Source of the DNA: an uncultured virus (IMG/VR IMGVR_UViG_3300029998_000015)
Lineage: Duplodnaviria; Heunggongvirae; Uroviricota; Caudoviricetes
Reading direction: 5' to 3' (one strand)
Length of the DNA stretch: 64,000 nucleotides
Virus record (IMG/VR): IMGVR_UViG_3300029998_000015
A program made the translations under genes and the position numbers. Shown in pieces: positions 8,730 through 46,812 of the stretch. The first letter of the stretch is position 1. Each line of letters opens with the position of its first letter. The notes beneath the pieces are model-generated. The model had not been told where the DNA came from and did no database searches. It worked only from the letters and a program-made list of their open reading frames with translations.

Positions 8730-9017
8730 ATGATTACAAAATTTAAAATATATGAATCAATAAATGAAGGAGAGCCAGAGAAAGGTGACTTTGTAATTGT
8801 TGATATCGAAGATGATACATATTATCAAAAAGGAACAATTGACTTAGTGAATAATGGTATTCATAGATTAATTGATATACTATATGAAGCTAACTCTACT
8901 TCATATGTTATTGATTTTTCAGGTACTTGGTTCGTAAATAGAAAAAATATAATATATTGGGCAAAAAATTCAAAAGAATTAGAACCTTTACTACAATCAA
9001 ACAAATTTAATATATGA
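8730..9017 (+). CDS. SH3/KOW-like small protein with N-leader and NKFNI C-tag
   Basis: MITKFKIYESINE...KGDFVIV...QSNKFNI. Confidence 0.7.
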   Translation: MITKFKIYESINEGEPEKGDFVIVDIEDDTYYQKGTIDLVNNGIHRLIDILYEANSTSYVIDFSGTWFVNRKNIIYWAKNSKELEPLLQSNKFNI

Positions 9018-9340
9018 AATACATAAAACAATTTGAAAGGTTATCTAAATATAAAGTTGGAGATTATATAGTAATTGAATATAATTGGAATAGTGGAAAT
9101 GATATACTATATAATTTGAAAGGATTTATTGATAGCACAATAGGAGTTTTATATGGTGAAGAATACGATAAAAAAAACTTAGTTATAAGATATGATAATG
9201 TACCAGAAGAATTAGTTCAGTTTTTCACAAAGATTGATAGTGGATATATAAAACCATTTTATCATTCTCAAATGGTTGGTTATTCTGAAAAAAAAGAAGA
9301 TTTAGAATATTTAATAAATGCAAATAAATTTAATATATGA
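9014..9340 (+). CDS. SH3/KOW-like small protein with N-leader and NKFNI C-tag
   Basis: MKYIKQFE...KVGDYIVI...NANKFNI. Confidence 0.7.
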   Translation: MKYIKQFERLSKYKVGDYIVIEYNWNSGNDILYNLKGFIDSTIGVLYGEEYDKKNLVIRYDNVPEELVQFFTKIDSGYIKPFYHSQMVGYSEKKEDLEYLINANKFNI

Positions 9341-9669
9341 TAACAGGATTTAAACTATACGAATCTTTTAATGAAGGAGAACCAGAAGTTGGTGATTATG
9401 TAATTTGTAATACCAAATATAGTCCTGATTTGAATTTATATCTTAGTAATCAAATAGGAAAAATAATAGGAATTGATAATGAAGATAATAGAGTAGAACC
9501 TTATCAAGTACATTTCATTAACGTTCCAGATTCTTTAAGAAAATATAAAAATGTTAGAGATTATAAATATTCAAATACAATACCATTTTCAAGATTTGAA
9601 ATAATCAATTGGTCCAAGAACAAAGAAGAATTAAAGAATATATTTGATACTAACAAATTCAACATTTAA
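9337..9669 (+). CDS. SH3/KOW-like small protein with N-leader and NKFNI C-tag
   Basis: MITGFKLYESFNE...EVGDYVIC...DTNKFNI. Confidence 0.7.
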   Translation: MITGFKLYESFNEGEPEVGDYVICNTKYSPDLNLYLSNQIGKIIGIDNEDNRVEPYQVHFINVPDSLRKYKNVRDYKYSNTIPFSRFEIINWSKNKEELKNIFDTNKFNI

Positions 9670-9700
9670 TTAAACTTTTAAATAAAATAGAGATATAAAT

Positions 9701-9786
9701 TAATGTAGTTAATTTGTGATGATATAAAACATCACGAACTTTGACAAAGCCAAGAAAGCATAGTTGTTCATAAGAAACAACAAATT
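9701..9786 (+). ncRNA. Candidate small structured RNA or 3' UTR element
   Basis: Hairpins 9713-9738 (tttgtgatg/catcacgaa) and 9763-9781 (gttgtt/aacaac) in an intergenic gap before a terminator. Confidence 0.3.
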
Positions 9787-9818
9787 AAAGAGAGATAATA
9801 ATTTATCTCTCTTTTTTT
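9787..9818 (+). terminator. Intrinsic terminator
   Basis: aaagagagataa/ttatctctcttt stem plus U-tract. Confidence 0.85.
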
Positions 9819-9851
9819 ATAAATATGTTTTCATATTTGAAATTTAATTAG

Positions 9852-9859
9852 TATATTTG
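9852..9859 (+). promoter_or_regulatory. Bacteroidota sigma-A -7 element (TATATTTG)
   Basis: Matches TAnnTTTG ~15 nt before ATG at 9875. Confidence 0.6.
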
Positions 9860-9874
9860 CACAAAATATATATT

Positions 9875-10836: not shown

Positions 10837-10837
10837 T

Positions 10838-11269
10838 ATGTCAACAGATGATTTAAGAAATTGGTTATTAGACAAATTGTTGTCATGTTATCCAGTGGTT
10901 AGTGAAAATTTATATCATCAAATTTATTGGTATTATGATGAATCTTATATAAGGAAAAATAAATTATTAAAATTGAATAATATTTCTAATGATGATTTAT
11001 TAAATCATAAAATAAATGGAGAATGTTTATTCATTCAAGATACAGACAATAAATTCATTTGGTGTGATCATAAATATATTTGGAATTTTTTAGAATCGAA
11101 TTATAATGAAAATGAGTATAAGATAAATATATTAATTGAGAAAATATTAATCAATAAGAAGGAATTTAATGATTATAATTATTTTGGTTATTATGATCAT
11201 GAGATGAATAAAATTCTATTATTAAAATCATTCAAAGAATTAAAAATAATTGATTATTCAATTAGATAA
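10838..11269 (+). CDS. Hypothetical protein (paralog of 30993..31490)
   Basis: KLxSCYPV...IxWxYDExxIRKNKxxKLNN shared. Confidence 0.7.
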   Translation: MSTDDLRNWLLDKLLSCYPVVSENLYHQIYWYYDESYIRKNKLLKLNNISNDDLLNHKINGECLFIQDTDNKFIWCDHKYIWNFLESNYNENEYKINILIEKILINKKEFNDYNYFGYYDHEMNKILLLKSFKELKIIDYSIR

Positions 11270-11301
11270 AAAAGAGAGCAAATAATTTGCTCTCTTTTTT
11301 T
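11268..11301 (+). terminator. Intrinsic terminator
   Basis: aaagagagcaaat-a-atttgctctcttt. Confidence 0.85.
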
Positions 11302-11352: not shown

Positions 11353-13248
<1,896 letters not shown>

Positions 13249-13249
13249 C

Positions 13250-13287
13250 AAAAAAAAAGAGAGCAAATTAATTTGCTCTCTTTTTTT
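13250..13287. terminator. Bidirectional intrinsic terminator at convergent junction
   Basis: A-tract-gagagcaaat/atttgctctc-T-tract. Confidence 0.85.
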
Positions 13288-13444
13288 AATCATTTTTATT
13301 TCGAAAAAAAGTCAATATCCTTCTTCTTCTTCATTATGATTATTTTTATTATTGTGATCCTCTTTTGTAAGGGACCACAAATAAATAAACATTACAATAC
13401 TACTTACTTCTTGTAATTTTTTTAAATTAAATTCATTGTTCATT

Positions 13445-13744
13445 TTATTGTTCTATTAGTTTATCCATTAATTCATATGATTTATTAAAGTCTTCAAATA
13501 TATCATCTATGTCTTCACCAGTTGAAATTCCATCAAGGAAGAACTCAGTTTCAATATTATACTTATAAGATAAATGTTTAACAGTTGATACAAAGTCTGG
13601 ACTATTTGAATATGCAATACCATCTGATTTATCTTTCAAATTTCTAACTAAAAATTCAGCATTTATTACTTCAGTTAAAGGATGACGTTGTTTATCACAC
13701 AAATCTTCGATTGTTACTCCACAATATATTTTTAGTTTTTTCAT
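13445..13744 (-). CDS. Hypothetical protein
   Basis: 99-aa ORF in coupled operon. Confidence 0.65.
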   Translation of the reverse strand: MKKLKIYCGVTIEDLCDKQRHPLTEVINAEFLVRNLKDKSDGIAYSNSPDFVSTVKHLSYKYNIETEFFLDGISTGEDIDDIFEDFNKSYELMDKLIEQ

Positions 13745-14259
13745 ACTTTTTCTGTTCGTTTAATTTTAAATTTCTTTAAAAAGTTTCTTCTTTCAAAGTA
13801 CTCCATGTTTGAAACTTCAGTGTAACATTTCTTTTGTACTTCTTCTGTTAATGTTTTAATATTAATTTTCTTTATTTCTTCTGATTTTTCAATTGATTTA
13901 TTAAACAATTTTTCAGAAAAACTAGAAAGTATTCTATTGATTTGTCTATGTAAAGGTTGATCTAATTTTATATTAACTGGGTCAATATAATTATAAGGAG
14001 TAGTACGATCATTATAATTACGTTCACGATTATAATCCTCAAAAATAATTTTAATTTTCATTGGATCAATAGAAGGAGGATTATTTTTTATTTTCATTTT
14101 TAACTCGTAAATTTCATTACGTAGTTTTGTTTCTTCCTCCTGATATAATTTTTTTTGTTCTTTTAGTGATAAATCAAATTCTTTTTTAGCAACATAATAA
14201 GGTTCTTTTAGTGCTTCTAAATCTTTGTTTTTTATTAAAACACAATCGTTTTCATTCAT
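13741..14259 (-). CDS. Hypothetical coiled-coil protein
   Basis: 172-aa ORF, charged helical. Confidence 0.65.
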   Translation of the reverse strand: MNENDCVLIKNKDLEALKEPYYVAKKEFDLSLKEQKKLYQEEETKLRNEIYELKMKIKNNPPSIDPMKIKIIFEDYNRERNYNDRTTPYNYIDPVNIKLDQPLHRQINRILSSFSEKLFNKSIEKSEEIKKINIKTLTEEVQKKCYTEVSNMEYFERRNFLKKFKIKRTEKV

Positions 14260-14262
14260 AAT

Positions 14263-14679
14263 TTATATAATTTTAAGTGCTTCTTTAAGTCCATATTCAA
14301 AGGCTTCTTCATATTTTCTATAAAGTGAAAATTCAAAATCTTTGTGATGATACCAGCACCATTCTTTTTCAGTTAAGTCCAATGGATTACCAATAAATTT
14401 ATCGATACTAAAGCAAAATTTAGGAGCTGTTGTACAATCAGTATCAATCTCTAAAAAAATCTGTTTTTGTTTTCTTAGCCAAGATTGTAGTTCTGATTGT
14501 GTAGGTCTTGCATATATATTTGGATGTTCAAATCTACTTTCAAATATTGAGTCTTCTTTGTTTTCTTCGCTGAAAATGCAATCAGTAAGGTCTTCGAAAT
14601 AATATTTACTTGGTATGTTATAGCCTTTTTTCTTTGCTAAATTTGCGGTCTCAAATGTTATTAATTCTTCTTTTTCCAT
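14263..14679 (-). CDS. Conserved-type Bacteroidota phage protein
   Basis: ITFETAxLAKxKG...PTQSELQSWLR...YEEAFEYGL pattern. Confidence 0.6.
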   Translation of the reverse strand: MEKEELITFETANLAKKKGYNIPSKYYFEDLTDCIFSEENKEDSIFESRFEHPNIYARPTQSELQSWLRKQKQIFLEIDTDCTTAPKFCFSIDKFIGNPLDLTEKEWCWYHHKDFEFSLYRKYEEAFEYGLKEALKII

Positions 14680-14684
14680 TATTT

Positions 14685-14915
14685 TTATATTAAATCTTTT
14701 TCGTGTATTGTATATATACTATATCCAGTTTCATCATCATATGGAATATAATATTCTTTTTCATAAGTAGGTAATTTTATCAATTCTTTTTCATCAAAAT
14801 ATATTATATTATTTTTGATGTGATAATTGACAGTTATGATATCAAGTCTATTTTTTACTTTTTCAAAAACTCCATTTTTAACCATTTCAGATGTAAAAAT
14901 TTTTCCTTTCCGCAT
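14685..14915 (-). CDS. Hypothetical protein
   Basis: 76-aa ORF in operon. Confidence 0.55.
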   Translation of the reverse strand: MRKGKIFTSEMVKNGVFEKVKNRLDIITVNYHIKNNIIYFDEKELIKLPTYEKEYYIPYDDETGYSIYTIHEKDLI

Positions 14916-15072
14916 ATTTATTTTAAATTGTATGTATGATTTCCAGAATTAATTAATCTAACAACTTGAATTAATGAATAACTCATAAATCTCATAAAAG
15001 GTATCACATAACCTCTATCGTCTTTTAAATCAACTTTATTATTAATAATATAATTGATGTCTAACAAACTTG

Positions 15073-15321
15073 TTATTTTTTGCATATATTTTCTATTTCT
15101 TTAATTTTACTTAAAAATGCTTGTTCAGCGTTCAATCCAGAATTTTTCATGAAAATAAATAAATCTTTATTTTCATCTGTGATATATTTATCTGGAATTT
15201 TATATTTGTTTTTGAATTTAATCCAATCACTATTAGATTTAATATAATTATCAAATGCATCAACTGATTTTTTATAATTGAAATTTATAGGGAAAACAGA
15301 ATTTACTTTTTTTGCTTTCAT
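15073..15321 (-). CDS. Hypothetical protein
   Basis: 82-aa ORF downstream of a near-consensus -7 element (15374-15381). Confidence 0.55.
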   Translation of the reverse strand: MKAKKVNSVFPINFNYKKSVDAFDNYIKSNSDWIKFKNKYKIPDKYITDENKDLFIFMKNSGLNAEQAFLSKIKEIENICKK

Positions 15322-15449
15322 ATTATAAAGATTTGATAATTTATACTAGATAAAAAACGATTTTGATATATTACGAAGATAGTAAATAGTTATCATATAA
15401 AGAAAAATAAATAGTTAAATATTTCTATTTATCTATTTATTTAATATTT

Positions 15450-15653
15450 TTATAACTCATAAACTAATCCATCAATAACCTCAACTCGAACCTTACAGTT
15501 CATCCCTCTCACTCCATTGATAGTTGGAATGATTGCTAATATATCATCTGACACATCTTCATTTGATAATATTTCTAACTCATATCCACTCCAAAGAGCA
15601 TTGTACTCTCCATTTTTAATATCTACATTTCTTTTTGATAAACTGTTTTTCAT
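15450..15653 (-). CDS. Small protein (paralog of 15663..15860)
   Basis: GxYNAxW...ILSN...VExIxGxV shared. Confidence 0.65.
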   Translation of the reverse strand: MKNSLSKRNVDIKNGEYNALWSGYELEILSNEDVSDDILAIIPTINGVRGMNCKVRVEVIDGLVYEL

Positions 15654-16534: not shown

Positions 16535-16831
16535 TTATTTCATATATGAAAACCTAAACAATCCTTTTTCATTAATGGTAAATGATTCAATTATTTTCAT
16601 ATCTTCATCTGATTTTTTAGTTTCATATGACCATTTACCGCCATCATCAAATACAAATTCATTTTCTGTTGTTGAATCTAATCTTTCAGTTAGACGATCA
16701 TTTTCTTTGCTAATTTTAAGAAGTTCTTTAAAATACTCATCTCTAACTTCTGGTGTTGTGAAGATCGTTTCATCTGGGGTTTGTTCATCTCCATATCTAT
16801 ATGATATTTCGTAAATTTTATATACTTTCAT
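16535..16831 (-). CDS. Hypothetical protein
   Basis: 98-aa ORF in coupled array. Confidence 0.6.
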   Translation of the reverse strand: MKVYKIYEISYRYGDEQTPDETIFTTPEVRDEYFKELLKISKENDRLTERLDSTTENEFVFDDGGKWSYETKKSDEDMKIIESFTINEKGLFRFSYMK

Positions 16832-18623
16832 ATTCTTTAAGTTTATCTATTTTTTGTTTTCTTTCAGTTTTAATATCTAATTTGAATCGTTTAATTTTAT
16901 ATCTCAAATCGGAATTTCCTACTAATGATAAGTAATATTTATTAAATTTTACACTGAAATGAATTTGTTTAATTTTATATTTTTTACCAAATTCTAATAT
17001 TGTATTGTTATTATTAATTACAACTACATCATCACCAATTTTCAAATATTCAATTTTTATTTTTGACATAAGATTTCAATTTTTTTCTTTCTTGATGTTT
17101 TTAAATCAAAATCAAATCTATAACTGAAATATTTTTGTTCACCAGACTCTATGAATGTTAAATAATGATTATGTTCAGGAATATTATCTAATGATTCTCT
17201 ATGAAAAACTCCACTAATTGTATATTTTTTAGTCAGAATTAAATTGTTATTACTATCATCAATAACAATAACTTTATCTCCAATTTTAAAAGATTTTATT
17301 TTTTGCATAGTTGTTTAAGTTTTTTATTTCTTGATGTTTTCAAATCATATTTAAATCTATACGGAAAATATATAATTAATGCAGTTTCTTTAAGTCTTAC
17401 ACAAAAATTATAGTCATCAAAATCAGAGTTATTATAAATAATTTCACTAATTGTATATTTTTTATTTAATGTCAATAAAGAATGAGTGACATCAGTAGCA
17501 ATTACTTTATCACCAATTTTTGATGTTTTGAGGTTAATCATTTGATATTTTATTTAATTTTTCCTTTCGGATGTAGTTTAAATCAATATCAAATCTAAAA
17601 TCATAATATAACTTATTACCAGTCTCAATCAATCTAATTCGGTCATTACATGAATTATCACAAACATCAATATAACTAATTGTGTATTTTTTATTTAATA
17701 TTAATTCAGAAAAATTAACATTGACTGCAATTACTTTATTTCCTATTTTTAATTTTTTAATGTCAATCATGATTTGATATTTTATTTAATTTTTCCATCC
17801 TGATTGATTTAATATCAGAATTAAATCTATCTATTAAATATCTAGTATCTCTCATTTTGAAAAGTTTAAATTGATATACATTAAATTCTTCTATGTGAAC
17901 AATTTCTTTGATTTTATATATTTTACCAATTTCTAAATTGCTCATATCAGTAGAAACTGCAACAACTTCAGAATTGACTTGTATATTTTTAATATCAATT
18001 GGTTTTAGCATTTATTTATTTTTTCTAATTTATTTTTTCTAATATCATTCAAATCAATATCAAATCTACTAATTAAAAATCCTTCATCTCCCATATGATA
18101 TAATTTAAAATAGTATTGCTCTATACTATGAAAATAATCAATTTCTTTAATATAATATTTTTTATTTAATTCTAAACTAGTGTTACCTATATTAACTGCA
18201 ATAACAGTATCATTAATATGAATATTTTTAATGTCTATATTTTGTATCATTTATTTAGTTTTTCTAATTTATGCTTTCTAATTTCAGATGCTGTTATAAA
18301 ATTAGGAATATAATTAAACATACCTGGAATTTCTTGAGTGAAAAAGAAATTAGGATCATCAAGTACATAAGAATCAAATGTAACAATCTTATTATCGTCA
18401 TATCTGTACCTTAATACATCTCCTTTTCTTAACATTTACTCAGTTTTTTAAGTTTCTGTTTTCTAAATTCTGATAATGTAATGCAATTATCTACATAATG
18501 AAAATATTCATCTTCATATATAAAAAAATAATGGGATAATATATTATTAGCACTATATTTTTTAAATGTAAAAACTTCATTGCTAAATGACTTATCAATA
18601 ATTTTATCTCCTAAATTGAACAT
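16818..18623 (-). other. Tandem array of 8 paralogous SH3/KOW-like small ORFs with RKxKL C-tag (16818-17069, 17057-17308, 17296-17541, 17534-17770, 17763-18011, 18005-18250, 18247-18435, 18429-18623)
   Basis: KIGDxV...LxxxKxYxI...RF.xD.xxxRKxK[LI] pattern; overlapping start/stop codons. Confidence 0.85.
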
Positions 18624-18729: not shown

Positions 18730-18856
18730 TACAGTTTTTAATATTTAAAAGCTTCTGTTTTCTTAACATCATATTAATCTTAAATTTTATTTCAGATTCT
18801 GTAGATTTAGATAGTTGCCTAATATGAACATATGGTTTATTATAGTTTATAATCAT
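18719..18856 (-). CDS. 45-aa mini-ORF with RKQKLLNI tag (not in ORF track)
   Basis: Hand translation MIINYNKP...LRKQKLLNIKNCNEN*; ATGA-coupled to 18853 stop. Confidence 0.6.
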   Translation of the reverse strand: MIINYNKPYVHIRQLSKSTESEIKFKINMMLRKQKLLNIKNCNEN

Positions 18857-19224
18857 AATATTATATTTAGTTCAGATAAAATTTGCTCTTTTGTTGCCCA
18901 TTTTTTCAATCCTAAAATAGTGCAAATATCTTCTTTTGTAGCCAAATCTAATGATGGATATTCATTTTTGTTAAATACCTTATAACCCCTTATTTTCAAT
19001 TCATTTAACATTTCATCATCAGTCAAGTCATATAATATCTCTGAATCATAATCACTCAATTCTAAATCTATTTCTGTATATAAAATACTTCTATCTTTAA
19101 CGTAAATATCAGATTCTTTGCGTTTTTTCAATTCATATTCTATATCATCAGTGCCTAATGATTTTAAAATTTTTTGCTTATGATTAAATAAATCAAGTTC
19201 AAATCTAATCCAACAATAATTCAT
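18853..19224 (-). CDS. Hypothetical protein
   Basis: 123-aa ORF with repeated LxxDxxxxELKxR helices. Confidence 0.6.
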   Translation of the reverse strand: MNYCWIRFELDLFNHKQKILKSLGTDDIEYELKKRKESDIYVKDRSILYTEIDLELSDYDSEILYDLTDDEMLNELKIRGYKVFNKNEYPSLDLATKEDICTILGLKKWATKEQILSELNIIL

Positions 19225-19238
19225 ATTTTTAATATTTT

Positions 19239-19448
19239 TTATGGTTCATAAATACCATAACCATTAATATAACACTTCTTTTTAATAGTTGTTAATTTTA
19301 CCTTTATTGCATCATCATTTAAAGGCTTAATTGATATTATAATTAAGCCGTCATCAAATGATGATGCTGATGAAATTGTTTCTTTATTATGTACAACACT
19401 GTGCATATAAACATATTCAGGAATATTTAAACTATTAGTTGTTATCAT
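19239..19448 (-). CDS. Small protein (paralog of the C-terminal part of 19452..19838)
   Basis: NIPEYVY...IKxKCxINGYGxYxP. Confidence 0.65.
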   Translation of the reverse strand: MITTNSLNIPEYVYMHSVVHNKETISSASSFDDGLIIISIKPLNDDAIKVKLTTIKKKCYINGYGIYEP

Positions 19449-19451
19449 ATA

Positions 19452-19838
19452 TTAAGAGTTATTAGGATCATAATATCCATAACCATTTATATTACATTTT
19501 TCCTTTATGTTGGTTATTTTTATTTTTTCAGACTTATCTGATAAAGGCTCTGTTGAATAATATTCATTTTTATAAACATATTCAGGAATATTTTTTCTGA
19601 ATTCTTCATATTTATTATCATAATGATGTTTTAAAAAATAAAAAACCAAACAAGATAATACAGGAATAATAAGCATTGACAATTGAATAATAATTGAATC
19701 TGTGATATAATTCATTGAATTTAATTGAATATGTTTAAAATCAAGAATATATGTGACAATAATCGCAAACAATGACATCAATTGAAAAGTTTCAATAACT
19801 TTTAAATACATCTTTAAATCTTCTTTTTTGATTTTCAT
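19452..19838 (-). CDS. Membrane protein, 2 TM plus NIPEYVY domain
   Basis: Hydrophobic segments; shares C-domain with 19239 ORF. Confidence 0.65.
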   Translation of the reverse strand: MKIKKEDLKMYLKVIETFQLMSLFAIIVTYILDFKHIQLNSMNYITDSIIIQLSMLIIPVLSCLVFYFLKHHYDNKYEEFRKNIPEYVYKNEYYSTEPLSDKSEKIKITNIKEKCNINGYGYYDPNNS

Positions 19839-20206: not shown

Positions 20207-20548
20207 TTAAGCATTCATAACTTTCATAATATCTCTTAATACTGCAGCTTCTTCGTAATTTTCAATTTTAACTGCATCTAACATTTCTTTCTCAATGTGA
20301 TTAACTTTAGAGAACTCAGTAGAATTAGTCCAAGATTTACCACGACTATCTTGAACATCTCCACATCCACATTTTACCTGACGATATTTTGCAACACCTC
20401 CAATATTAATACACTGTGCTCCACATGTTGGACAATACATAGCATCCATAACAATGTATTTTTTACCTTCAATCCGTAATTGACTTTTAATGTTAGTTGT
20501 ATTTGATAAAGATACTACTTCATCACCAATGTTAAATTCTTTTTTCAT
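20207..20548 (-). CDS. KOW-like + Zn-ribbon + UVR (UvrB/C coiled-coil) protein
   Basis: IGDEVV; CPTC...CGC; EMLDAVKIENYEEAAVLRD matches the UVR consensus. Confidence 0.75.
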   Translation of the reverse strand: MKKEFNIGDEVVSLSNTTNIKSQLRIEGKKYIVMDAMYCPTCGAQCINIGGVAKYRQVKCGCGDVQDSRGKSWTNSTEFSKVNHIEKEMLDAVKIENYEEAAVLRDIMKVMNA

Positions 20549-20562: not shown

Positions 20563-20898
20563 TTAAATTATATTAATGTCTCTTAATAATGATGATAATT
20601 CGTAATTTTCTGTTTTTATTGATTCTGATAGTGCTTCTTTAATATTATCAACGTTCGCAAAATGAAAAGAATCTGTCCAATATTTACCTTTACTCAATGA
20701 AATATTTCCACAACTACATTCAGATTTTTCAAGAGTTGTAAATACTCCAATATTAATTGATTGAATTCCACACTTAGAACAATATGTATAATCAAGAACA
20801 GTATACACTGTTCCTTTCACTCTATTTTGACACAAATTATTTAATGGATTTGTTAATGCAACAACTTTATCTCCTATGCTATGTCTAACTATATTCAT
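20563..20898 (-). CDS. KOW-like + Zn-ribbon + UVR protein (paralog)
   Basis: IGDKVV; CSKC...CSC; LSESIKTENYELSSLLRD. Confidence 0.7.
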   Translation of the reverse strand: MNIVRHSIGDKVVALTNPLNNLCQNRVKGTVYTVLDYTYCSKCGIQSINIGVFTTLEKSECSCGNISLSKGKYWTDSFHFANVDNIKEALSESIKTENYELSSLLRDINII

Positions 20899-21771: not shown

Positions 21772-22683
21772 TCAAAATATCAAACTGGATGGTGTATTCC
21801 AAAGAAAATACAGTTTTGCATTCTCTCTTAAAATGAGATATTTGTATGTATCTTTTTTCATTAAATTCATACAATCAGAATCAATAGAAACAGACATATC
21901 ATTAACATCATAAATTTTAGGACCAAAAGGAAGAGTGCCTAAAAATTTATTAGCGTTACGATTTTCATATACATTCATATATGAAATCAATCTATCATAA
22001 AAAATCTTACTTGCATTATTTTCTATCCATTTATCAATACCATTATTTAATTCAGATTTGTACAATTTTCTGAAAGTTATTTGATCTGCACCAAGTTCTT
22101 TACATCTCAATAGAACCTCATCTACTGTGTGTTCATCATAATCATTAACCATATTTAATGATAATCTCAAATTGAAGTCATGATTTTTAACTAATTTAAT
22201 AGTATCAAAAACATCAAATTTTAATTTTTCATTACAACCTATAATTTTCAAATTTTTATCATTATCAAAAATATTAGAGATTGAAAAGGAAATAGTTGTA
22301 ATTCCAATTTCTCTCAAATGTCCAAGATATTCATCTGTCAATAGAACACCAGTTGTTTGAACTTCTATACTTTTAAAAGGAGTATGAAGTTTAGAATTCA
22401 TCTCTGAAAAAAAGTCTAAGAAATCTCTATTTTGAACTGGCTCACCTGTTCCAGTAAGAACTACAACATTACATCCATTGTCTCTGGCAAACTGTAAACG
22501 ATTGAAATAATCTTTATATTCAATTGAATTTTCAATGATGTCACTTCCTTCAATGTACTCATTGACAACATAATTTATCTTATCAACATACGGATTGGTG
22601 TGAGTTCTACTCACACAAAATTGACAATGATTTACACACTTGTTATTCGTTGGTACTACAATACTTAAACTTTGAATATTCAT
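21772..22683 (-). CDS. Radical SAM protein
   Basis: CVNHCQFC (CxxxCxxC), TGTGEP, VQTTG motifs. Confidence 0.88.
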   Translation of the reverse strand: MNIQSLSIVVPTNNKCVNHCQFCVSRTHTNPYVDKINYVVNEYIEGSDIIENSIEYKDYFNRLQFARDNGCNVVVLTGTGEPVQNRDFLDFFSEMNSKLHTPFKSIEVQTTGVLLTDEYLGHLREIGITTISFSISNIFDNDKNLKIIGCNEKLKFDVFDTIKLVKNHDFNLRLSLNMVNDYDEHTVDEVLLRCKELGADQITFRKLYKSELNNGIDKWIENNASKIFYDRLISYMNVYENRNANKFLGTLPFGPKIYDVNDMSVSIDSDCMNLMKKDTYKYLILRENAKLYFLWNTPSSLIF

Positions 22684-22867
22684 AACATTATTATTTTTTA
22701 TAAGATTCTACTATTTGAAAAATATCTAAAATAGGAAATTTATACACTAATTCATCAATTGTATATACACAATATAAACCATCTTTTGTATATGTATTTA
22801 TAACATCTATAAATTTGATAGGTTGTGATTGTGATTTTAAATGTACGGATGATGTCATATTATTATT

Positions 22868-23059
22868 TTATTTTATTTTATTTTCTAATTCTTCAATTTC
22901 TTCTTCTGTAAGTGGCCTAATAAAAGTATCTATTTTACATTTTTTACAATAACACCAGCCTTCTTCTTCATCTGTATTTATATTTAGTATTTCTGTTATA
23001 TCACATGGATTTCCGCATATCATACAATTTGCTGGACCATATTGATTTTCTTTTTTCAT
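22868..23059 (-). CDS. Small Zn-ribbon protein
   Basis: CMIC...CxCKKC. Confidence 0.6.
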   Translation of the reverse strand: MKKENQYGPANCMICGNPCDITEILNINTDEEEGWCYCKKCKIDTFIRPLTEEEIEELENKIK

Positions 23060-23060
23060 A

Positions 23061-23258
23061 TTAATTATATGGTTTTATATCTAATATGTTTGATTGCATA
23101 TGATGTTTTGGATAAAAAAAGAATTTTTGAAATGTGATATTTTCTATATTAGTACCAAATTTAACATGAACAGCTTCATCAGTAATTTTCCAAATAATAC
23201 CTATTTGTTCTTTTGAATATTTATCATCACTAATTATTTTATTTCCTACCTCCCACAT
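23061..23258 (-). CDS. Small SH3-like protein
   Basis: VGNKI...GII...VHVKF. Confidence 0.55.
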   Translation of the reverse strand: MWEVGNKIISDDKYSKEQIGIIWKITDEAVHVKFGTNIENITFQKFFFYPKHHMQSNILDIKPYN

Positions 23259-23276
23259 TTCAATATTTTATTTATA

Positions 23277-23284
23277 CAAAGATA
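23277..23284 (-). promoter_or_regulatory. Bacteroidota -7 element TATCTTTG
   Basis: caaagata on + strand, ~18 nt upstream of ATG 23258. Confidence 0.75.
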
Positions 23285-23285
23285 C

Positions 23286-23316
23286 AAAAAAAATTCTACA
23301 TAAGTAGAATTTTTTG
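23286..23316 (-). terminator. Intrinsic terminator abutting next promoter
   Basis: aaaaattctac-ataa-gtagaattttt. Confidence 0.7.
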
Positions 23317-23329
23317 TGGTTAAATATAT

Positions 23330-23578
23330 TTAAATTTGTTTATTAAATAATCTTTTAGAAATTTCTCTTGTAATAACATCATATGTACCAAACATTCTAT
23401 TTTCTTCAAGCCAAGCAAAATACATATCATAAATAACATCTAATTCTGTGTGATCAAATTTTCTTTCTCCTGTTTTTTGCCAATATAAATAATCTTCAAC
23501 GCATAACAACAAATCATCATTGCTAATCTGACTGATATAATCATTGATGTTTATATTATTAGGATTATTATTTTTCAT
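23330..23578 (-). CDS. Hypothetical protein
   Basis: 82-aa ORF. Confidence 0.6.
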   Translation of the reverse strand: MKNNNPNNININDYISQISNDDLLLCVEDYLYWQKTGERKFDHTELDVIYDMYFAWLEENRMFGTYDVITREISKRLFNKQI

Positions 23579-23588
23579 TTTGTAATTT

Positions 23589-24041
23589 TTAATTATTTAC
23601 AATTTTTGATATAGCCTTTAATATTCTAATGTTTTTTGATTTAGCAATTTCAGTAGCTTCTTCATAAGAATAATATTTTGACTCTTTTTTGATTTCTTTT
23701 GAACTATTAAGGAATATAAAATCACTATCTGCTGATGATACTTTTTTAGCATACCATTCTAATACATCACATTCATTATCATCCAAAATACTATAATATG
23801 TACTTCTTCTAACAACTTCATACAAACCCTTTACATAGTTTTCTTCAAACGGTGACCATATAAAACAATCATCATGAAAAGTAGTATTATTTTTTATGAA
23901 TTCAATAAAAGAGTTAGCTTGATTAAAAGTGAATGATTTTGCAGTTCTTATGCTTTTAGTCCAAACGCATTCAGAATTTTTATCCCCTTTTACATCTTCT
24001 AAAAAACCTTTACCACTTATTATATATTTATTAACAGCCAT
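23589..24041 (-). CDS. Hypothetical protein
   Basis: 150-aa ORF. Confidence 0.65.
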   Translation of the reverse strand: MAVNKYIISGKGFLEDVKGDKNSECVWTKSIRTAKSFTFNQANSFIEFIKNNTTFHDDCFIWSPFEENYVKGLYEVVRRSTYYSILDDNECDVLEWYAKKVSSADSDFIFLNSSKEIKKESKYYSYEEATEIAKSKNIRILKAISKIVNN

Positions 24042-24047
24042 AAATTA

Positions 24048-24392
24048 TTATTTTTTGAAGTTCTTTGTTACCCATTCATTAATAGATTCTTTATCTGATA
24101 ACGTATGTGATTCTGATAAGTAGTTGTCAATAAAACTTGTTATTTTATCAATCTCAACTTTATCTCTACTATCTTGAAGTGAATCAACTGTGCTATATTT
24201 TTTGAGTAATATTAATACTATTGATATTATTGAAACTGCAATACAAAAAATAGTAAATATAATACGTGCTGTAACTGTTGTGAACCATTCAGTAGATTGA
24301 ACATTACTAAATTGAGGATCAATTAGTGTCCACAACATTCCTAATCCTGGAAGAATACAAAATGAGAATAATAATAAAGTTTTTTTGTCCAT
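24048..24392 (-). CDS. Membrane protein, 2 TM
   Basis: Hydrophobic segments. Confidence 0.65.
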   Translation of the reverse strand: MDKKTLLLFSFCILPGLGMLWTLIDPQFSNVQSTEWFTTVTARIIFTIFCIAVSIISIVLILLKKYSTVDSLQDSRDKVEIDKITSFIDNYLSESHTLSDKESINEWVTKNFKK

Positions 24393-24422
24393 GACTTTTT
24401 AAATTATAAGTTAAAAAAAATA

Positions 24423-24726
24423 AAAAACAAATGGTATGAAGGATAGGCGTAGCTAAATTTTGTTTTCTTAAACATTTGCAACTGCTCAATAAACTAGATA
24501 TTCAACGCCTCGTTTTAGGTTGGTTCTGGATTTTCACCCATGCCTCCACCGCTGTCAGTAGCGGGCTTGTTTAAAAATACATCCTTTCTTATGTATTAAT
24601 ATCATCCCCCCAACTTTACTTGCCACAATGGACTCTCCATTCACTGATTATATCTACAAATCATAACATCAAAAATTAATCTAATAATTACAATCTTTAC
24701 TGTAGTTTCACTAACCATTTATTTTT
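24423..24726 (-). ncRNA. Candidate ~300-nt structured ncRNA of unknown class
   Basis: ORF-free, locally GC-richer; 13-bp terminal helix, UGGGU-GAAA-AUCCA tetraloop, several further helices. Confidence 0.6.
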
Positions 24727-24739
24727 ATATTGAAAAAAT

Positions 24740-25345
24740 TTATCTAATCAATTTAGATACTAAACTAGAACCTAATCCGTCATTTTTGAAACCATTTTTA
24801 TATGTTAAATATGAATCAAGAGCGATTGAAAATATTTTTTCATTGCCAACAATAACAATATCTATTCCATCTATAAGACGTAGATATTTATTACACAATT
24901 CATAAATATCAATATATGTATTTATTTCAAAATCTGATGCAATTAGAACAATTTTAAATTCATCCTTATTTGAAATTTGCTTATATCTATTTAAAATCGA
25001 GCTTAATGTTTTTACTGCATTAATAGAGCAAGATACATTTTTTAAATTAATACTCATCAAATATTCTGGATCCTGAAAGTCATTACAATCAATTGTTCTT
25101 AATTTTTTCTTATCAAAATAATCTGAATCCATTGATATTCCTTTTGATATTGATTCTTTATATGATTCAAACTCAAATTTGATTTGATAACTATTATCTT
25201 TCATACCACAAATTCTACTAACATCGGAAAAAACAATACTTAAAATTGCCATCAAAGAATTTCCTTTATCTAAGATATATTCAACATCAATTACCATATC
25301 TGAATTAGATGGTTCATAACTATTAACTAACTTTATTTTTCCCAT
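24740..25345 (-). CDS. Hypothetical protein
   Basis: 201-aa ORF directly upstream of the candidate ncRNA. Confidence 0.65.
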   Translation of the reverse strand: MGKIKLVNSYEPSNSDMVIDVEYILDKGNSLMAILSIVFSDVSRICGMKDNSYQIKFEFESYKESISKGISMDSDYFDKKKLRTIDCNDFQDPEYLMSINLKNVSCSINAVKTLSSILNRYKQISNKDEFKIVLIASDFEINTYIDIYELCNKYLRLIDGIDIVIVGNEKIFSIALDSYLTYKNGFKNDGLGSSLVSKLIR

Positions 25346-25403
25346 TTATTTTAATTTTTAATTTTTAAAATATATCATAATTTTTATGTATAGAATAACA
25401 TAA

Positions 25404-25592
25404 TTAGATGTTAGCATATAATTGTATGTTATTTAAATCTCCGCCAGTTCTATATTTGTTGTATTTATTGTCAAATTTACCAGAATCTACAAAATCTTCA
25501 TTCTGTCCATCTTTATCAAAATCTTCTACTACTTCATTTGGTAACACATACCAATGTCCGTTTTCGTCTTGAGTTGCTTTAACTTTTATCAT
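25404..25592 (-). CDS. Small phage protein (DxxGHWY motif)
   Basis: QDENGHWYVLP. Confidence 0.6.
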   Translation of the reverse strand: MIKVKATQDENGHWYVLPNEVVEDFDKDGQNEDFVDSGKFDNKYNKYRTGGDLNNIQLYANI

Positions 25593-25801
25593 ATTAATTT
25601 TTTAATTATTCATAGATTCAAACACACCTTTATCATCTCAGAATCACCTGATACTTTGTCGGTGTGTTCTTCATCTATTATTCTTAGCTATTATGTAAAC
25701 CAGGACCTAACAATTAATTTATTAGTATCTATTCAAATTACTTCATCTAATTGATTAGATTGAATTTTTCATTTGAATAACTAAGACTAGCCTCTTTAAA
25801 T

Positions 25802-26014
25802 TTATACACATCTGTCAATCGTCCTTGATGCACCAAATGAATTATTATCATTTATGCACACTCCTGATAATCTACTAAAAACTCTACATTCATTGTCACT
25901 ATTATAATCATCAATAGATACCCTATTTTCTGTGAATTCTACAACTTCACAAACTTCTTCTGAAGTAACACCTGCAGCATGAAAAAACATTGTTATTTTA
26001 TCTCCTATTTTCAT
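25802..26014 (-). CDS. Small SH3-like protein
   Basis: MKIGDKI start. Confidence 0.6.
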   Translation of the reverse strand: MKIGDKITMFFHAAGVTSEEVCEVVEFTENRVSIDDYNSDNECRVFSRLSGVCINDNNSFGASRTIDRCV

Positions 26015-26019
26015 TATAT

Positions 26020-26226
26020 TTAGATTTTAGATTTATTCCATTTTAAGTGTCCTATTATATTTAATACAGCAAAAGAGAAATACATAATAACAAGAGAAAC
26101 ACTAGAATTTAAAAAATATATTATTCCTATTATACTTCCTATTAAGCCAACTATAAACCCAATTTTCTTTTTAACACAAATCAAGTAATACGAAGATAAA
26201 CTTAATATCATTATTAACCAATCCAT
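26020..26226 (-). CDS. Small 3-TM membrane protein (PnuC half-like)
   Basis: DW...KKKIGF...NIIGxxKW pattern. Confidence 0.5.
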   Translation of the reverse strand: MDWLIMILSLSSYYLICVKKKIGFIVGLIGSIIGIIYFLNSSVSLVIMYFSFAVLNIIGHLKWNKSKI

Positions 26227-26253
26227 AAATATTTGTTGTTTTATTATTATTCA

Positions 26254-26285
26254 CAAAGATAATATAATTTTAAATACAAACCAAA
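26254..26285 (-). promoter_or_regulatory. Bacteroidota sigma-A promoter (-33 TTTG / -7 TATCTTTG)
   Basis: -7 at 26254-26261, TTTG at 26282-26285, 20-nt spacer. Confidence 0.8.
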
Positions 26286-26298
26286 TTTATTATGAATT

Positions 26299-26541
26299 TT
26301 AAGCATCTTTTTTTAGTTCAATGCTAAATTTTAAAGTTGATAAATCATATCCTCTTTTTTCTAATTCTTCTTTTAAATTAAAATTATCAAAATTATAAGG
26401 ATAATCTTTGCTGATATTATATTTAAGAACATCACCACAAATATGATTTAATATTAATGCACCATCACAACGTAGTGGATATTTAACTACAAAATCTTTT
26501 TGTCTTTTATCATATATTAATGATAGTTTTTTATCATTCAT
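26299..26541 (-). CDS. Hypothetical phage protein
   Basis: ELEKRGYDLSTLKFSI C-terminal pattern. Confidence 0.65.
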   Translation of the reverse strand: MNDKKLSLIYDKRQKDFVVKYPLRCDGALILNHICGDVLKYNISKDYPYNFDNFNLKEELEKRGYDLSTLKFSIELKKDA

Positions 26542-26547
26542 ATTAAA

Positions 26548-27012: not shown

Positions 27013-27046
27013 AAATTTATTTTTTAAATTGTTTATATTTAACTCA

Positions 27047-27077
27047 CAAAAGTAATAAATTATAAATAACTATCAAA
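27047..27077 (-). promoter_or_regulatory. Bacteroidota sigma-A promoter (-7 TACTTTTG)
   Basis: -7 at 27047-27054, TTTG at 27074-27077. Confidence 0.7.
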
Positions 27078-27246
27078 ACAAATTATAGTTATTTAACGTT
27101 GATTATCCATACAATAATTTACTGTAATATCATTTCTAAGATTATTATTTTGAGATTTTATAAAATCATAATCATTTTTCAATTGTTCATATTTTATTTT
27201 CAGTTCAGATAGTTCTGATTTAATAATTTCTAATTCTTCATTTTCA

Positions 27247-29394: not shown

Positions 29395-29990
29395 TTAATA
29401 ATTTATTTAACTTCTTGTTTCTTAAATATTTTTCAATGTCCTTAATATCAAATTTATCTAAAGAATTATTAATTTCTTCTTTTGATAAATTTTCAATAAG
29501 TACTCCAATTTTATCTGAGACTTCATGAACATTCAGATAATCTCTAATTGAATCTCTAATTGAATTTGTAATTCCAAATGACATAAATGACATAATTATT
29601 TATTTAAATTTTTCAATTTCTTAGTTCTTAAAAATTTCTCAATATCTTTAATTTCAAATTTTTCTAAAGAATCATTTATATCTTCTTTTGATGCATATTT
29701 AATAAGATTATCAATTCTAATTGGTATTTCTCCAACAATGTCATAATTAATGGCTCTTGATATAGTTGAATATAATTCTGATTCTGACATAGAAACTCTT
29801 GATATTTCTCTCATTTTAATTTTTTTAATTTTTTATTTCTTAAAAATTTCTCTATATCTTTAATATCAAACATATTCAAAACTTCTACTATTTCTTCATT
29901 TGAAGAATTTTTTATTATTTCATATACTTCAGTCGCTTTATTATTACCATTACTCCAATAATCAGGCAAATATTTACTTTTTGATGGCAT
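29387..29990 (-). other. Three DIEKxLR-family ORFs (29387-29593, 29596-29814, and unlisted 59-aa 29811-29990)
   Basis: SxEE/DI...LxxFxIKDIEK[FY]LRxKKL shared. Confidence 0.8.
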
Positions 29991-30219
29991 ATTTATTTAT
30001 TTTTTCTAATTTATATTTTCTGACTACTTTGATATCAGAAAACCTACTTATAAATAAAGTTAAATCAGGAAATTCTTTTATTCTTATTAATCCAATTCTT
30101 CTGTGATAAGGCTCAATTATTGTACAAGATTGACCATAAATTAAACTTGTTCCTTCTATATTTAAAATGATTATTTTATCACCTATTTTTAAATTATCAC
30201 TAACTTTTAAATGTTCCAT
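29974..30219 (-). CDS. SH3/KOW-like ORF with RKYKL tag
   Basis: LKIGDKII...RFSDIKVVRKYKLEKI. Confidence 0.7.
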   Translation of the reverse strand: MEHLKVSDNLKIGDKIIILNIEGTSLIYGQSCTIIEPYHRRIGLIRIKEFPDLTLFISRFSDIKVVRKYKLEKINKYAIKK

Positions 30220-30992: not shown

Positions 30993-31490
<498 letters not shown>

Positions 31491-43641: not shown

Positions 43642-43819
43642 AAATATTATAAATTAAATGTGATGTATAATATAAAATATAGAATAAAACAACGTTTATA
43701 ATTGACGAAACAAATACAGTTGAGCTTAATGTTATATTTAATGAATATACACAAGATGATATAATAATCATAACTGATACGATAGAAAACAAAATAACAA
43801 TAAAATAGTTATTTTTCAT
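43628..43819 (-). CDS. Small 2-TM membrane protein
   Basis: Hydrophobic. Confidence 0.5.
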   Translation of the reverse strand: MKNNYFIVILFSIVSVMIIISSCVYSLNITLSSTVFVSSIINVVLFYILYYTSHLIYNIYEKI

Positions 43820-44841
43820 TTTGAAAATAATCTTTGTATAAAATTCTTTTTATTTATTTTATCAAGTTTTTCTTTTCTTTCTTGTTTTATATCATTTTCA
43901 CTTACCAGCCATTCAATATCAGAGGTATTTTTAATTGATATAAATTTTGATTTGGTCGCTCTTTTAACATAATCAAATTGTGATGGATCAAAACCTGAAA
44001 TGATTTCTAAACTCACTAAATTTATTTTAGATATTCCTCCATTATATTTATCTACTTCTTCAACATAAACCATCACTTTATATTCATATGACTCTGAACT
44101 ACCTATACTTTTACTAAGATTTGTTTTATGAATGTAATATCCTTGAGGTAATTTTGGTTTTTTACTCATGATTATTTTTTATTTATCTCTAAAATTTTAT
44201 CTCTTCTATCATTTTTTAATGTAGGCATCAACCATTCTACTTTATCAGTTTTGACTATTGATACAAATTTATTTTTTGCACATGTCTTCATCCAATCATA
44301 TTTATCAGGATCATCCCCTTTCTCAATTTCTACCTTTTCTAATATTACTCTGGAATAATTATTTTCATACCTTTCTACTTCTATAACATGTAAAAAAACT
44401 GTATATTTATCATATCCTTGTTTTGTCGAAATAGTTTCAAGATAAAAACCTCTTGGTCCTTTTATTGGTTGTTTTTTATTAAACATTTTATTTTGATTTT
44501 TTAATTTGTTTAAGCTTTTCAGCTCTTTCATCATTTAAGGTAGAAATATTTTCTAACCATTGTATTTTATTTGTTTCATAAATTGATACAAATTGTTCTC
44601 TTACACAAGTTTTTATCCAATTAAATTGGTTTATATTCATTCCAGATTTAATTTCTACATTTTCTAGTTTTATTTTTGATAAATTATCTTTATACCTTTC
44701 TAATTCTGATACATGAACTACATAATCATAATCATTACTAGAATTTGATTCATTTTCATTTAATTGAATAGTGCCAGTATAATATCCTTTTAGAATAATT
44801 GGCTCCTTTTTTTTGCCAAAAATTTTATTTAATAATTTCAT
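43816..44841 (-). other. Three paralogous ~117-aa ORFs with RxxK[LI] tag (43816-44169, 44172-44534, 44488-44841)
   Basis: GxY...VxExxxY...SxxxL..xEI..G...FxSI..T..xxWL shared. Confidence 0.8.
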
Positions 44842-44843
44842 AT

Positions 44844-45461
44844 TTAATTATTTTTTAATTTGTTACTCAATTCAATAAACATATCATACCAATCCTTTGG
44901 CTTGCAAATGTTTTCATCATCATATATTTTTGATTTAATTATATTCATTGAGCCAAAATCATATATTTTTCCAGTTTCTTTAATTTGAATACCAAAATTT
45001 AATATTCTCAATGCATGATAAATATTTTTAGATGCATATTCAAAATTATCATCTTTATATGACAGTATAGCATTATGCCAACTTGATGATGCTAATGTTA
45101 TAACTTTTTTAGAAAATTCTTTTTTATCAAATTTGGAAATTTTAAAATCAAAAGTTTTTTTAACTATCATATCTTCAGGTAAAAATAAACATTCTAATAC
45201 TGACATTTGATAATTATTTATTGCATCTATAAATCCTCCTCTTGAATAACAAGTTCCTTGAATTTCTCTATCAGATGATGATATTGCATTATCTTTAAAT
45301 GATCCACTTGGTAATATTGATCTCTTATAAACTATGATATAATCAAAATCAGAATACTCATCTGCAGTCCCATATATTTGTGATCCGTATGGAAATATGT
45401 TCAATATCTCATTTATGTCTAAATGTAATTCATTACAAATTTCTTCTGCTGTATAGTTCAT
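44844..45461 (-). CDS. Nucleotidyltransferase (pol-beta superfamily)
   Basis: YGSQIYGT...SDFDY (GS + DxD); KNIYHALRIL helix. Confidence 0.85.
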   Translation of the reverse strand: MNYTAEEICNELHLDINEILNIFPYGSQIYGTADEYSDFDYIIVYKRSILPSGSFKDNAISSSDREIQGTCYSRGGFIDAINNYQMSVLECLFLPEDMIVKKTFDFKISKFDKKEFSKKVITLASSSWHNAILSYKDDNFEYASKNIYHALRILNFGIQIKETGKIYDFGSMNIIKSKIYDDENICKPKDWYDMFIELSNKLKNN

Positions 45462-45817
45462 TCTTTTAATATAAATTTTTTAAATATCATCTCTATAATC
45501 TCATCATCACTAGCGCCATATTGTTTATTTTCAGAATCAATTATTGTATATCCTACTTCATCAGAAACATATTTTTTTATGTCTTCTAATTTAGAGTTAT
45601 CTATTTCTTTCCAACCTTCTAAAATTTCATCTTGAATATCTTTGGTACTTTCACCACCTAATTCTACAATTAGTTTATCTGCATTATCATGATATGCACC
45701 ATATGATTTAACTTTCCATCCAATACCAGCAACTTTAGCGTCTAACATTACATGAGACATTGCACTTCTTAACCATTCAAGTTCAATAATTATTTTTTTG
45801 CGATTCATTCTTTTCAT
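45458..45817 (-). CDS. Hypothetical protein
   Basis: 119-aa ORF. Confidence 0.6.
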   Translation of the reverse strand: MKRMNRKKIIIELEWLRSAMSHVMLDAKVAGIGWKVKSYGAYHDNADKLIVELGGESTKDIQDEILEGWKEIDNSKLEDIKKYVSDEVGYTIIDSENKQYGASDDEIIEMIFKKFILKE

Positions 45818-45819
45818 AA

Positions 45820-46083
45820 CTAATATACTATACTTTGTGAAATTTTTTTACCACATCTTTTACAAATATAAATAGGTAAAGTATATCCAGTTGAGTTATG
45901 ATATGGAAATCCATCAACAGGATCAGTATAACCTATTATTTCATCATTTTCAAAATCTACGTCAGGTTCTAATTCAGATAATTCTTCGCAATAACACCAT
46001 TCGGGATTTTCTTTAATTTCCTTTTCTAATGCTATTTTACTACGAATTTCTTTATTTTTTTCTTTCGTTATTTTATTTGACAT
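45820..46083 (-). CDS. Small Cys/His-containing protein
   Basis: WCYC...H...CKRC. Confidence 0.55.
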   Translation of the reverse strand: MSNKITKEKNKEIRSKIALEKEIKENPEWCYCEELSELEPDVDFENDEIIGYTDPVDGFPYHNSTGYTLPIYICKRCGKKISQSIVY

Positions 46084-46306
46084 GATTATTTGGTATTACA
46101 ACATCAGTATTAGTATCAAATGAATTCATGATAACTTGTAATGAAACGCCTAACTTAATTGTAGCGTCATAAAACATATGAACATCATCTATTTCTTCAA
46201 GCCAATTATCATGTCCATTTATACAATGTCCATTGTTTTTGTTTTCCTTTGTAGTTCCACAAGTAATACAGATTGCTTCTGCAGAATGATAGTTATTTTC
46301 TATCAT
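46073..46306 (-). CDS. Small Zn-finger-like protein
   Basis: CITC...CINGH. Confidence 0.55.
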   Translation of the reverse strand: MIENNYHSAEAICITCGTTKENKNNGHCINGHDNWLEEIDDVHMFYDATIKLGVSLQVIMNSFDTNTDVVIPNNHVK

Positions 46307-46812
46307 ATAGTTTCAAGTTTTAATGTTTTTGTAATAGGGTCTAAAAGTACTATATTATACTTATCATCAGATAATATTGTATAATTTGATATTTGAGGAT
46401 TTTTTACATTATCTTTTACTGTATAGCCATCAACATATACAACATTAGATTCTCTAATTTTCAATAAAATTAAGGAATGAATTTTTGTTTGTTTATTTGT
46501 ATATTTAGGATAACATTCTCTCCACTTTTGATTTTTTACTATTATTTTTTTGAAAACTTCTTCAATTGAAAATTTGCCTATTTCACAAACATTTAAATAT
46601 ACTGAGAATTGATTTTGAATGGCATCAGCCATTTCTTCAATCAAATGATCCTCATCGTATGGTTTTTGTGTTATTCCAATAAGTTTACAAACTTCTGCGG
46701 AAAACTCACCATATTCTTCGTTATATTTAAGAAATCTTTCAAGAAATTTTTTACCATCAAGGTGATTTAATTCTGAAATTTCATTCAGAATTTTTTCTAA
46801 TTCTATATTCAT
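46303..46812 (-). CDS. MazG-like nucleotide pyrophosphohydrolase
   Basis: KYNEEYGEFSAEV...EEMADAI...KNQKW (EExxE/ExxD). Confidence 0.8.
   Translation of the reverse strand: MNIELEKILNEISELNHLDGKKFLERFLKYNEEYGEFSAEVCKLIGITQKPYDEDHLIEEMADAIQNQFSVYLNVCEIGKFSIEEVFKKIIVKNQKWRECYPKYTNKQTKIHSLILLKIRESNVVYVDGYTVKDNVKNPQISNYTILSDDKYNIVLLDPITKTLKLETI

Follow-up and report, generated by a model that had tools for sequence, protein, structure and literature searches.

Short terminal tags on many small proteins, two SH3-like barrel families among them, in a probable megaphage

Phage T4 loads diverse proteins into its head by means of capsid-targeting sequences (CTSs), propeptides of 10-20 residues which, as summarised in passages of PMC9026906 and PMC5694885, are carried by the internal proteins IPI-III and Alt and are removed by gp21. 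UVR proteins of the Clp system (McsA and plastid ClpF/EXE/UVR) combine a Cys-rich zinc module with a following UVR coiled coil, and UVR proteins were enriched in a plastid ClpC1 trap, according to sections of PMC8889267; SPO1 Gp53 is presented in part of PMC6873191 as a phage ClpC adaptor. Small β-barrel (SH3-like) folds, which in excerpts of 10.1101/140376 include PsaE, KOW/uL24/NusG and Tudor, are five-stranded, and comparable small barrels are common in phage proteins; one counter-defence protein, Nip, has two predicted SH3-like domains in the account given in part of PMC11984713. Cargo tags at the N-terminus, docking by UVR and small phage barrels all have precedents. Here we analysed a 64,000-nucleotide stretch of DNA (the window) from the uncultured virus IMGVR_UViG_3300029998_000015, in which three groups of small proteins share a GDxV start and differ in their ends: group i has an N-terminal leader and the tail NKFNI, group ii has a helix of the form RKxKL, and group iii has an inserted zinc ribbon and a UVR coiled coil. 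What emerges is that a single barrel family occurs with three tags, as part of a tagging scheme that extends across the genome. The reading that we favour, with a probability of about 0.5, is that a clade of megaphages sorts many small proteins by short terminal tags and that two SH3-like barrels are among the cargo folds. The tails are most likely address labels.

The analysed stretch belongs to a virus record of 126.5 kb (G000; GC content 20-31%). It is overlapped by two records (G002 and G003) at 99.9-100% nucleotide identity, and it has a syntenic relative at ~79% (G004) and a further relative (G001). Among the 252 open reading frames (ORFs) of G000, loose patterns found a KFN[IL]-type end in 59 and RKxKL in 45; approximately two in five ORFs of the examined part of the genome end in one of these two short tags. 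In the complete 735-kb relative W01 (LR756501.1), which with 32% GC is an imperfect control, a stricter RKxKL pattern matched 2 and KFN[IL]-type ends 4 of 1055 ORFs. At these frequencies the tails are not due to chance, and every ORF cited in the earlier note was found where stated with its tail type. Most carriers contain neither barrel, both in G000 (36 of 59 with a KFN[IL]-type end, 34 of 45 with RKxKL) and in a set of 546 proteins from the same phage (67 of 99 and 79 of 108). The tags are also found on LRR-like arrays and helical families, both recognised by eye, and on an ankyrin protein at 58577. Since most carriers have unrelated folds, the short tails are genome-wide tags and are not owned by the barrels. 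The proposal that the tails are portable is thus borne out. The earlier note had also argued from UVR, a docking module, that the other two tails are docking signals; UVR on a single subfamily is insufficient for that step, and the spread over unrelated folds is the better argument. The same spread bears on the idea that each family simply inherited its tail by duplication, as a structural helix at the C-terminus, and that the tails have no function in common. In the two barrel models described below the tail is indeed a helix after strand 5, and tails are stable within families, but the presence of identical tails on LRR, ankyrin and helical proteins, among other unrelated folds, is at odds with it, as is the lower confidence (~70 pLDDT) of the last 8-10 residues of both models, and we consider this explanation most improbable. 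LRR-like protein arrays occur in G000 at 2416-3610, 12688-15581 and 21999-28901, with a leader and a KFN[IL] tail on each protein.

The RKxKL tail has an amphipathic pattern, and the number of residues between it and the end of the protein varies. No gene follows closely in 40 of 231 carriers, and the motif is also found internally, at residue 31-33, in 18 counted proteins of another family that starts with M.KEELS.WF. The amphipathic spacing, the carriers without a downstream gene and the internal copies together suggest that RKxKL is a motif at the level of the protein. A basic amphipathic helix of this kind could dock early proteins to one common partner. The M.KEELS.WF proteins form a large paralogue family (window 10838-11269 and 30993-31490; G000 31105-53929).

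The earlier note had treated the GDxV proteins as one SH3/KOW-like domain. Group i is encoded on the plus strand by three genes at 8730-9017 (95 aa), 9014-9340 (108 aa) and 9337-9669 (110 aa), each with the leader at its start and NKFNI at its end. Group ii lies on the minus strand, and each of its ORFs has a C-terminal helix of the form R-x-x-K-[LI]-x-x-[LI]. The group comprises six tandem barrels at 16818-18250 (16818, 17057, 17296, 17534, 17763 and 18005), three at 27428-28128 (27428, 27657 and 27877), one at 29974-30219 and one at 46781-47056 (E 5e-9), which runs past 46812, the end of the range in the earlier note. A divergent barrel at 42257-42601 matches only weakly (E 0.034), and two short ORFs at 18247-18623 (18247 and 18429) have a GD start and an RKxKL tail, with no match to the profile of this barrel at E<=0.05. 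Group iii, also on the minus strand, consists of a barrel with a four-Cys zinc-ribbon insert (CxxC...CxC) and a UVR tail at 20207-20548 (113 aa) and its paralogue at 20563-20898 (111 aa, 41% identity), with the ribbon and a UVR-like tail.

Pairwise scores between the tail-trimmed groups were near noise, and profile alignments of the trimmed groups gave probabilities of 92% over 33 columns for groups ii and iii, 8% for i and ii and 1% for i and iii. Because the shared start inflates such scores, all columns after GDxV were shuffled 40 times as a control. The start alone reached a probability of 92-95%, so the first match between groups ii and iii is weak evidence, and we relied on the score margin of deeper profiles built from 1034 proteins of G000-G004 and 140 group-iii homologue rows. 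With these, groups ii and iii scored 47.7 against a control mean of 32.1 and maximum of 36.1, whereas group i scored 21.0 against the other two, compared with a control mean of 21.1 and maximum of 23.4. Groups ii and iii also gave reciprocal HMM matches. When the 252 G000 genes were searched with the group-iii profile, eight group-ii genes ranked directly after the two self hits (E 0.003-0.22), while the best group-i gene reached only E 0.87. On these profiles, the SH3-like GDxV proteins are two families, type A (group i) and type B (groups ii and iii). Type A shares with the other groups only the start motif as far as sequence comparison can detect, and common ancestry is not detectable in this way. 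The shared GDxV start is no evidence for one family, as it yields profile probabilities above 90% by itself. One apparent match between types A and B, at 74%, was rejected; the type-B alignment contained two type-A rows, and after cleaning the value was 44%, equal to controls.

The structures agree in fold and differ in their closest relatives. AlphaFold models of ORF 9337 (group i, pLDDT 82) and ORF 17534 (group ii, pLDDT 85) are both SH3-like barrels with a C-terminal helix, and both have the features that define small β-barrels of this type, namely five strands and a short helical turn that links strand 4 to strand 5. The best solved match of the 9337 model is PsaE (Z 7.0, rmsd 2.3, 63 aligned). 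The 17534 model is closest to ribosomal chains (Z 6.9, rmsd 3.1, 57 aligned), which we take to be uL24, and it also matches SH3 domains and NusG (Z 6.1, rmsd 1.9, 51 aligned). An Atlas model of ORF 20207 has its nearest named neighbours in uL24/KOW, DUF4926 and SH3 clusters (TM 0.44-0.49 by query). With all Z scores under 8, the structure matches show fold and not function. The type A model has helical inserts after strands 1 and 3 that are absent from type B, and type B has its own signature, L...K.Y.I in the second strand and RF at the end. Among 22 proteins scanned with Pfam, UVR was found on 20207 only, with nothing credible on the other 21, and KOW (PF00467; 27 residues, invariant Gly 11) matched none of the 22 at E<=0.1; SH3 profiles likewise gave no match. 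Given its KOW-type structural matches and the missing KOW profile match, type B is KOW-like by fold only. Pfam, PHROGs and NCBIfam gave no name for either barrel, and the PHROGs matches were all weak. The SH3-like fold and the homology of groups ii and iii beyond the start thus stand, while the inclusion of group i in the same domain family does not. In contrast to known small SH3-like barrels, two separate sequence families are here expanded to tens of copies, with 22-26 copies of type A in G000. By analogy with Nip, a counter-defence role of the variable barrels is possible. Two-barrel proteins were also seen: the product of G001 L029:11322-11981 looks like a type-B barrel joined to a type-A barrel, with a leader and KFNL, and that of G003 L044:4255-4725 has two type-B barrels ahead of one RKxKL tail.

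One barrel under three tails is nevertheless found in type B, on the evidence of its alignments and with examples that lie outside the cited group i, which is type A. After cleaning, the type-B alignment has 80 rows, of which 69 carry RKxKL, 4 UVR, 4 a leader and a KFN[IL]-type end and 3 none of these. In 61 type-A rows, a KFN[IL]-type end is present in 60 and RKxKL in none. The type-B genes with leader and KFN[IL] are L038:13073-13339 in the same phage (G002) and L028:15485-15754 and L028:1554-1886 in a relative. A profile of the RKxKL barrels alone, searched against 1033 tail-trimmed proteins, matched them at E 7e-7, 5e-8 and 7e-6, respectively; since it also matched one type-A protein (2e-6), single scores need care. 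For the barrel of the L038:13073 family, 55 columns could be aligned with the profile of RKxKL-tailed barrels (97.5%), compared with 13 columns for type A. In the window, the sole candidate for this pairing is a possible type B barrel on the plus strand at 59924-60259 with a leader and a KYNI tail, whose matches are weak (E 0.0016 with an iterated profile, 0.023 with the profile of RKxKL barrels alone). The L038:13073-13339 protein is far more conserved than the array paralogues, and its type-B barrel may have a core role.

These tails change rarely. The L038:13073 gene has 31 homologues at 64-99% identity, every one with a K[YF]N[LIM] or NFNL end. For 12 of 12 barrels in L006 of G004 the best match in this phage bears the same tail. 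Of 68 barrels in G001, 53 were matched; 45 of these had the same tag and in 4 KFNI and RKxKL were exchanged, mostly at low scores. In the best 150 of 254 group-iii homologue clusters, a leader was gained in 3 and a true RKxKL or KFNI tail in none; the sole match to an RKxKL pattern among them (P0098) proved to be the end of its own UVR helix and was not counted. In a tree of type B, the four KFNI-type rows are scattered over four positions and the UVR rows group together in a single clade, implying at least 5 tail changes, with the limits that it has 57 columns, that 32 of 76 inner branches are open and bootstraps unsettled, leaving the backbone poorly resolved, and that one 45-aa fragment was excluded. 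As far as these comparisons reach, tail swaps are old and rare. The barrels may have gained or changed tags by rare recombination, followed by tandem duplication within a tag class. The three tails had been described as interchangeable, and free exchange is largely refuted. We therefore regard as quite improbable a single ancestral barrel, including the proteins at 8730-9669, that served as a diversified binder and exchanged three tails freely. All three groups are SH3-like with a GDxV start, and the sequences of types A and B are compatible with a shared origin in the very distant past. However, types A and B match no better than the start-motif controls, the PsaE-like and KOW-type structures and the type A inserts separate them, type A has no RKxKL in 61 rows, tails are stable in 12 of 12 orthologues, and group iii is conserved.

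The KFN[IL] end is strictly terminal, its leader partner is nearly always present, and the residue class of the end is kept across different codons. The 132 leaders extracted from KFN[ILMV] genes are short and shared by unrelated small proteins of differing folds. A DNA motif, AATATATA, lies at 8716-8723 on the plus strand, 6 nt upstream of the ATG of the first leader/KFNI gene, and may be a late, short-leader promoter. Similar motifs precede 24 of 49 first-in-run KFNI genes compared with 1 of 43 first-in-run RKxKL genes, and this difference in upstream motifs suggests that the two short-tag classes are transcribed separately. The DNA of K-F-N-I-stop can itself spell AATATATA, which raises the question of whether the short tails are by-products of DNA or RNA signals where genes adjoin (a promoter, translational coupling or an array-building recombination cassette) and not protein addresses. 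The codon usage of the tails is strongly biased (AAC in 86 of 180 KFNI asparagines compared with 10% in gene bodies, AAA in 179 of 183, ATA in 95 of 105), and AAC is commoner when a gene lies close behind (71/128 versus 15/47). The AAC bias points to some DNA-level constraint or to shared ancestry. However, AAC peaks exactly where AAT would create AATATATA, at 32 of 44 sites before ATA TAA compared with 8 of 29 before TTA TAA, which fits an asparagine that is kept while a promoter is avoided. AAC is also high before TGA, and avoidance of the motif explains the bias only partly. The tails hold a constant position with respect to the stop codon, they are retained where no gene follows (47 of 175 KFN[ILMV] tails, and the RKxKL carriers counted above), RKxKL also occurs inside proteins, and the pairing of leader and KFNI is left unexplained by junction signals. 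We consider such an origin of the tails rather unlikely.

Under the sorting reading, leader and KFN[IL] would mark late proteins for loading into a T4-type head, with the leader acting like a CTS and the free C-terminal hydrophobic-x-hydrophobic end serving as a second docking point. As with CTSs, small proteins that are otherwise unrelated have a short N-terminal peptide in common, and the phage has T4-like genes (gp32, UvsX-like and gp5-like). The differences from T4 are that ~100 proteins of an incomplete genome carry the leader, that it is paired with a constant KFN[IL] at the C-terminus, an end not described for the T4 internal proteins, and that only about half of the leaders have a hydrophobic-x-Glu site. 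CheckV rated 222 kb as 31% complete and 235 kb as 33% complete, which suggests a genome of ~710 kb, the size of a megaphage. A 711-kb contig also carries homologues, and the nearest matches of the RecA-like protein (59.6%) are unannotated phage records of 634-735 kb. Among huge phages, those with the largest Mahaphage genomes are predicted in parts of PMC7162821 to infect Bacteroidetes. A T4-type prohead protease and a capsid gene were not found in the fragments of this phage, which are 15-33% complete and so give no evidence of absence; three related complete records have a gp23-family capsid, and W01 has a T4-like head gene block. W01 shares similar leaders with this phage, some of them on type-B barrels, but it is without the KFN[IL] and RKxKL expansions, the type A paralogues and the Zn-UVR barrel. 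The presence of leaders without both short tails in W01 suggests that these two tails are specific to the present lineage. By eye, the C-terminus of the protease/scaffold-like protein of W01 does not resemble KFN[IL]. Leader-bearing proteins of W01 have another recurring motif, DPYGEEDW (L081:6919-7215 and L068:8178-8810), which is perhaps that lineage's own tag.

The Zn-ribbon and UVR barrel behaves as a conserved family. ORF 20207 matches Pfam UVR (PF02151) at 25.8 bits, above the cut-off of 21.5, and ORF 20563 has no Pfam match, yet scores 25 bits with a profile made from the tails of homologues. A search with the barrel of group iii alone found at least 254 clusters (50% identity) at E<=0.001. 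Among the best 150 of these, 80 of which were covered by the Pfam scan, 102 have a UVR-like tail (>=12 bits) and several more look like worn UVRs. The four Cys are conserved at 90-99% and Q23, R25, G28, Y31, W73, T74 and F79 at 86-98%. Such fixed Cys and surface residues suggest a single conserved function, and the description of a diversified binding domain fails for this group. One homologue was named McsA by its source, and NCBIfam contains no family, McsA included, that matches 20207 or 20563 at E<=0.001. Like the UVR proteins of the Clp system, both proteins place a Cys-rich zinc module before a UVR coiled coil, with the difference that their N-domain is an SH3-like barrel into which the four-Cys ribbon is inserted. 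Also present in this phage (G002) are genes for an 844-aa AAA+ ATPase of the ClpC type with an IGF loop (L040:16277-18811), for ClpP (L042:13390-14145) and for DnaJ (L039:5454-6461). By analogy, the UVR tail of 20207 and 20563 most plausibly docks to ClpC; it would pair with the UVR-type middle domain of ClpC, the host's or the phage's, and the two proteins would be Clp adaptors or regulators. The family has no name, is conserved, and comes with a specific ClpC hypothesis. A second UVR-tailed protein of this phage has another N-domain (G002 L039:7322-7768), and in W01 UVR tails are found on unrelated N-domains (L083:6246-6914 and L074:1898-2425).

The presence of ClpC-type, ClpP and UVR-tailed proteins in one phage also fits another reading, in which the tails direct turnover, as degrons or as docking ends for the phage ClpCP or a host tail-specific protease, and time early and late proteins rather than place them. 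Non-polar C-termini are known degron types, and KFN[IL] is a strictly terminal hydrophobic end. The near-constant pairing of KFN[IL] with a leader is not accounted for by turnover, and RKxKL, which is trailed by a variable number of residues and also occurs internally, is poorly suited to it. This makes turnover signals quite unlikely as the common explanation.

Several points weigh against sorting by terminal tags. The gp21-type cleavage consensus is hydrophobic-x-Glu, and this occurs within the first 16 residues of only 72 of 132 leaders (control 49 of 231), the commonest residues two before the first Glu being Thr and Lys. The fragments of this phage contain no head genes, so that the CTS reading depends on a relative which possesses the leader but neither short tail. 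The excess of AAC in KFNI counts in the same direction. UVR also pairs in UvrB/UvrC, and the middle domain of the phage ClpC contains only a worn UVR motif (no Pfam UVR; 0.6 bits with the UVR-tail profile). The profile alignment of groups ii and iii is limited to strands 1-2 (34 columns). A bolder form of the sorting reading is a three-address code over hundreds of small proteins in a clade of ~700-kb phages, in which leader and KFN[IL] together mark head cargo, RKxKL docks early proteins to one hub and UVR couples proteins to the phage's own ClpCP, and one barrel family moved among all three, so that the same binding fold would act at injection, in early infection and as a degradation adaptor; we regard this as speculative and rather doubtful. 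If the tags are addresses, a large block of hypothetical proteins would sort into virion cargo, early effectors and Clp adaptors, and there would be two peptide-receptor pairs to seek.

tblastn searches of 20207, 9337 and 17534 against 50,697 phage records gave no match, and literature searches turned up no paper on either barrel or on the two short tails. The text of two huge-phage preprints does not mention SH3, KOW, UVR or paralog, and their supplements may list the families. Other shared ends occur in the window at 18853-19838 and 43816-44841, in small paralogue pairs or triplets (KCYINGYG; three related proteins with ERKEKL-type tails). At 53495-58017, two AAA ATPase genes are followed by a DUF2201 metallopeptidase/vWA gene, and all three products have leader-like N-termini and no KFNI tail.

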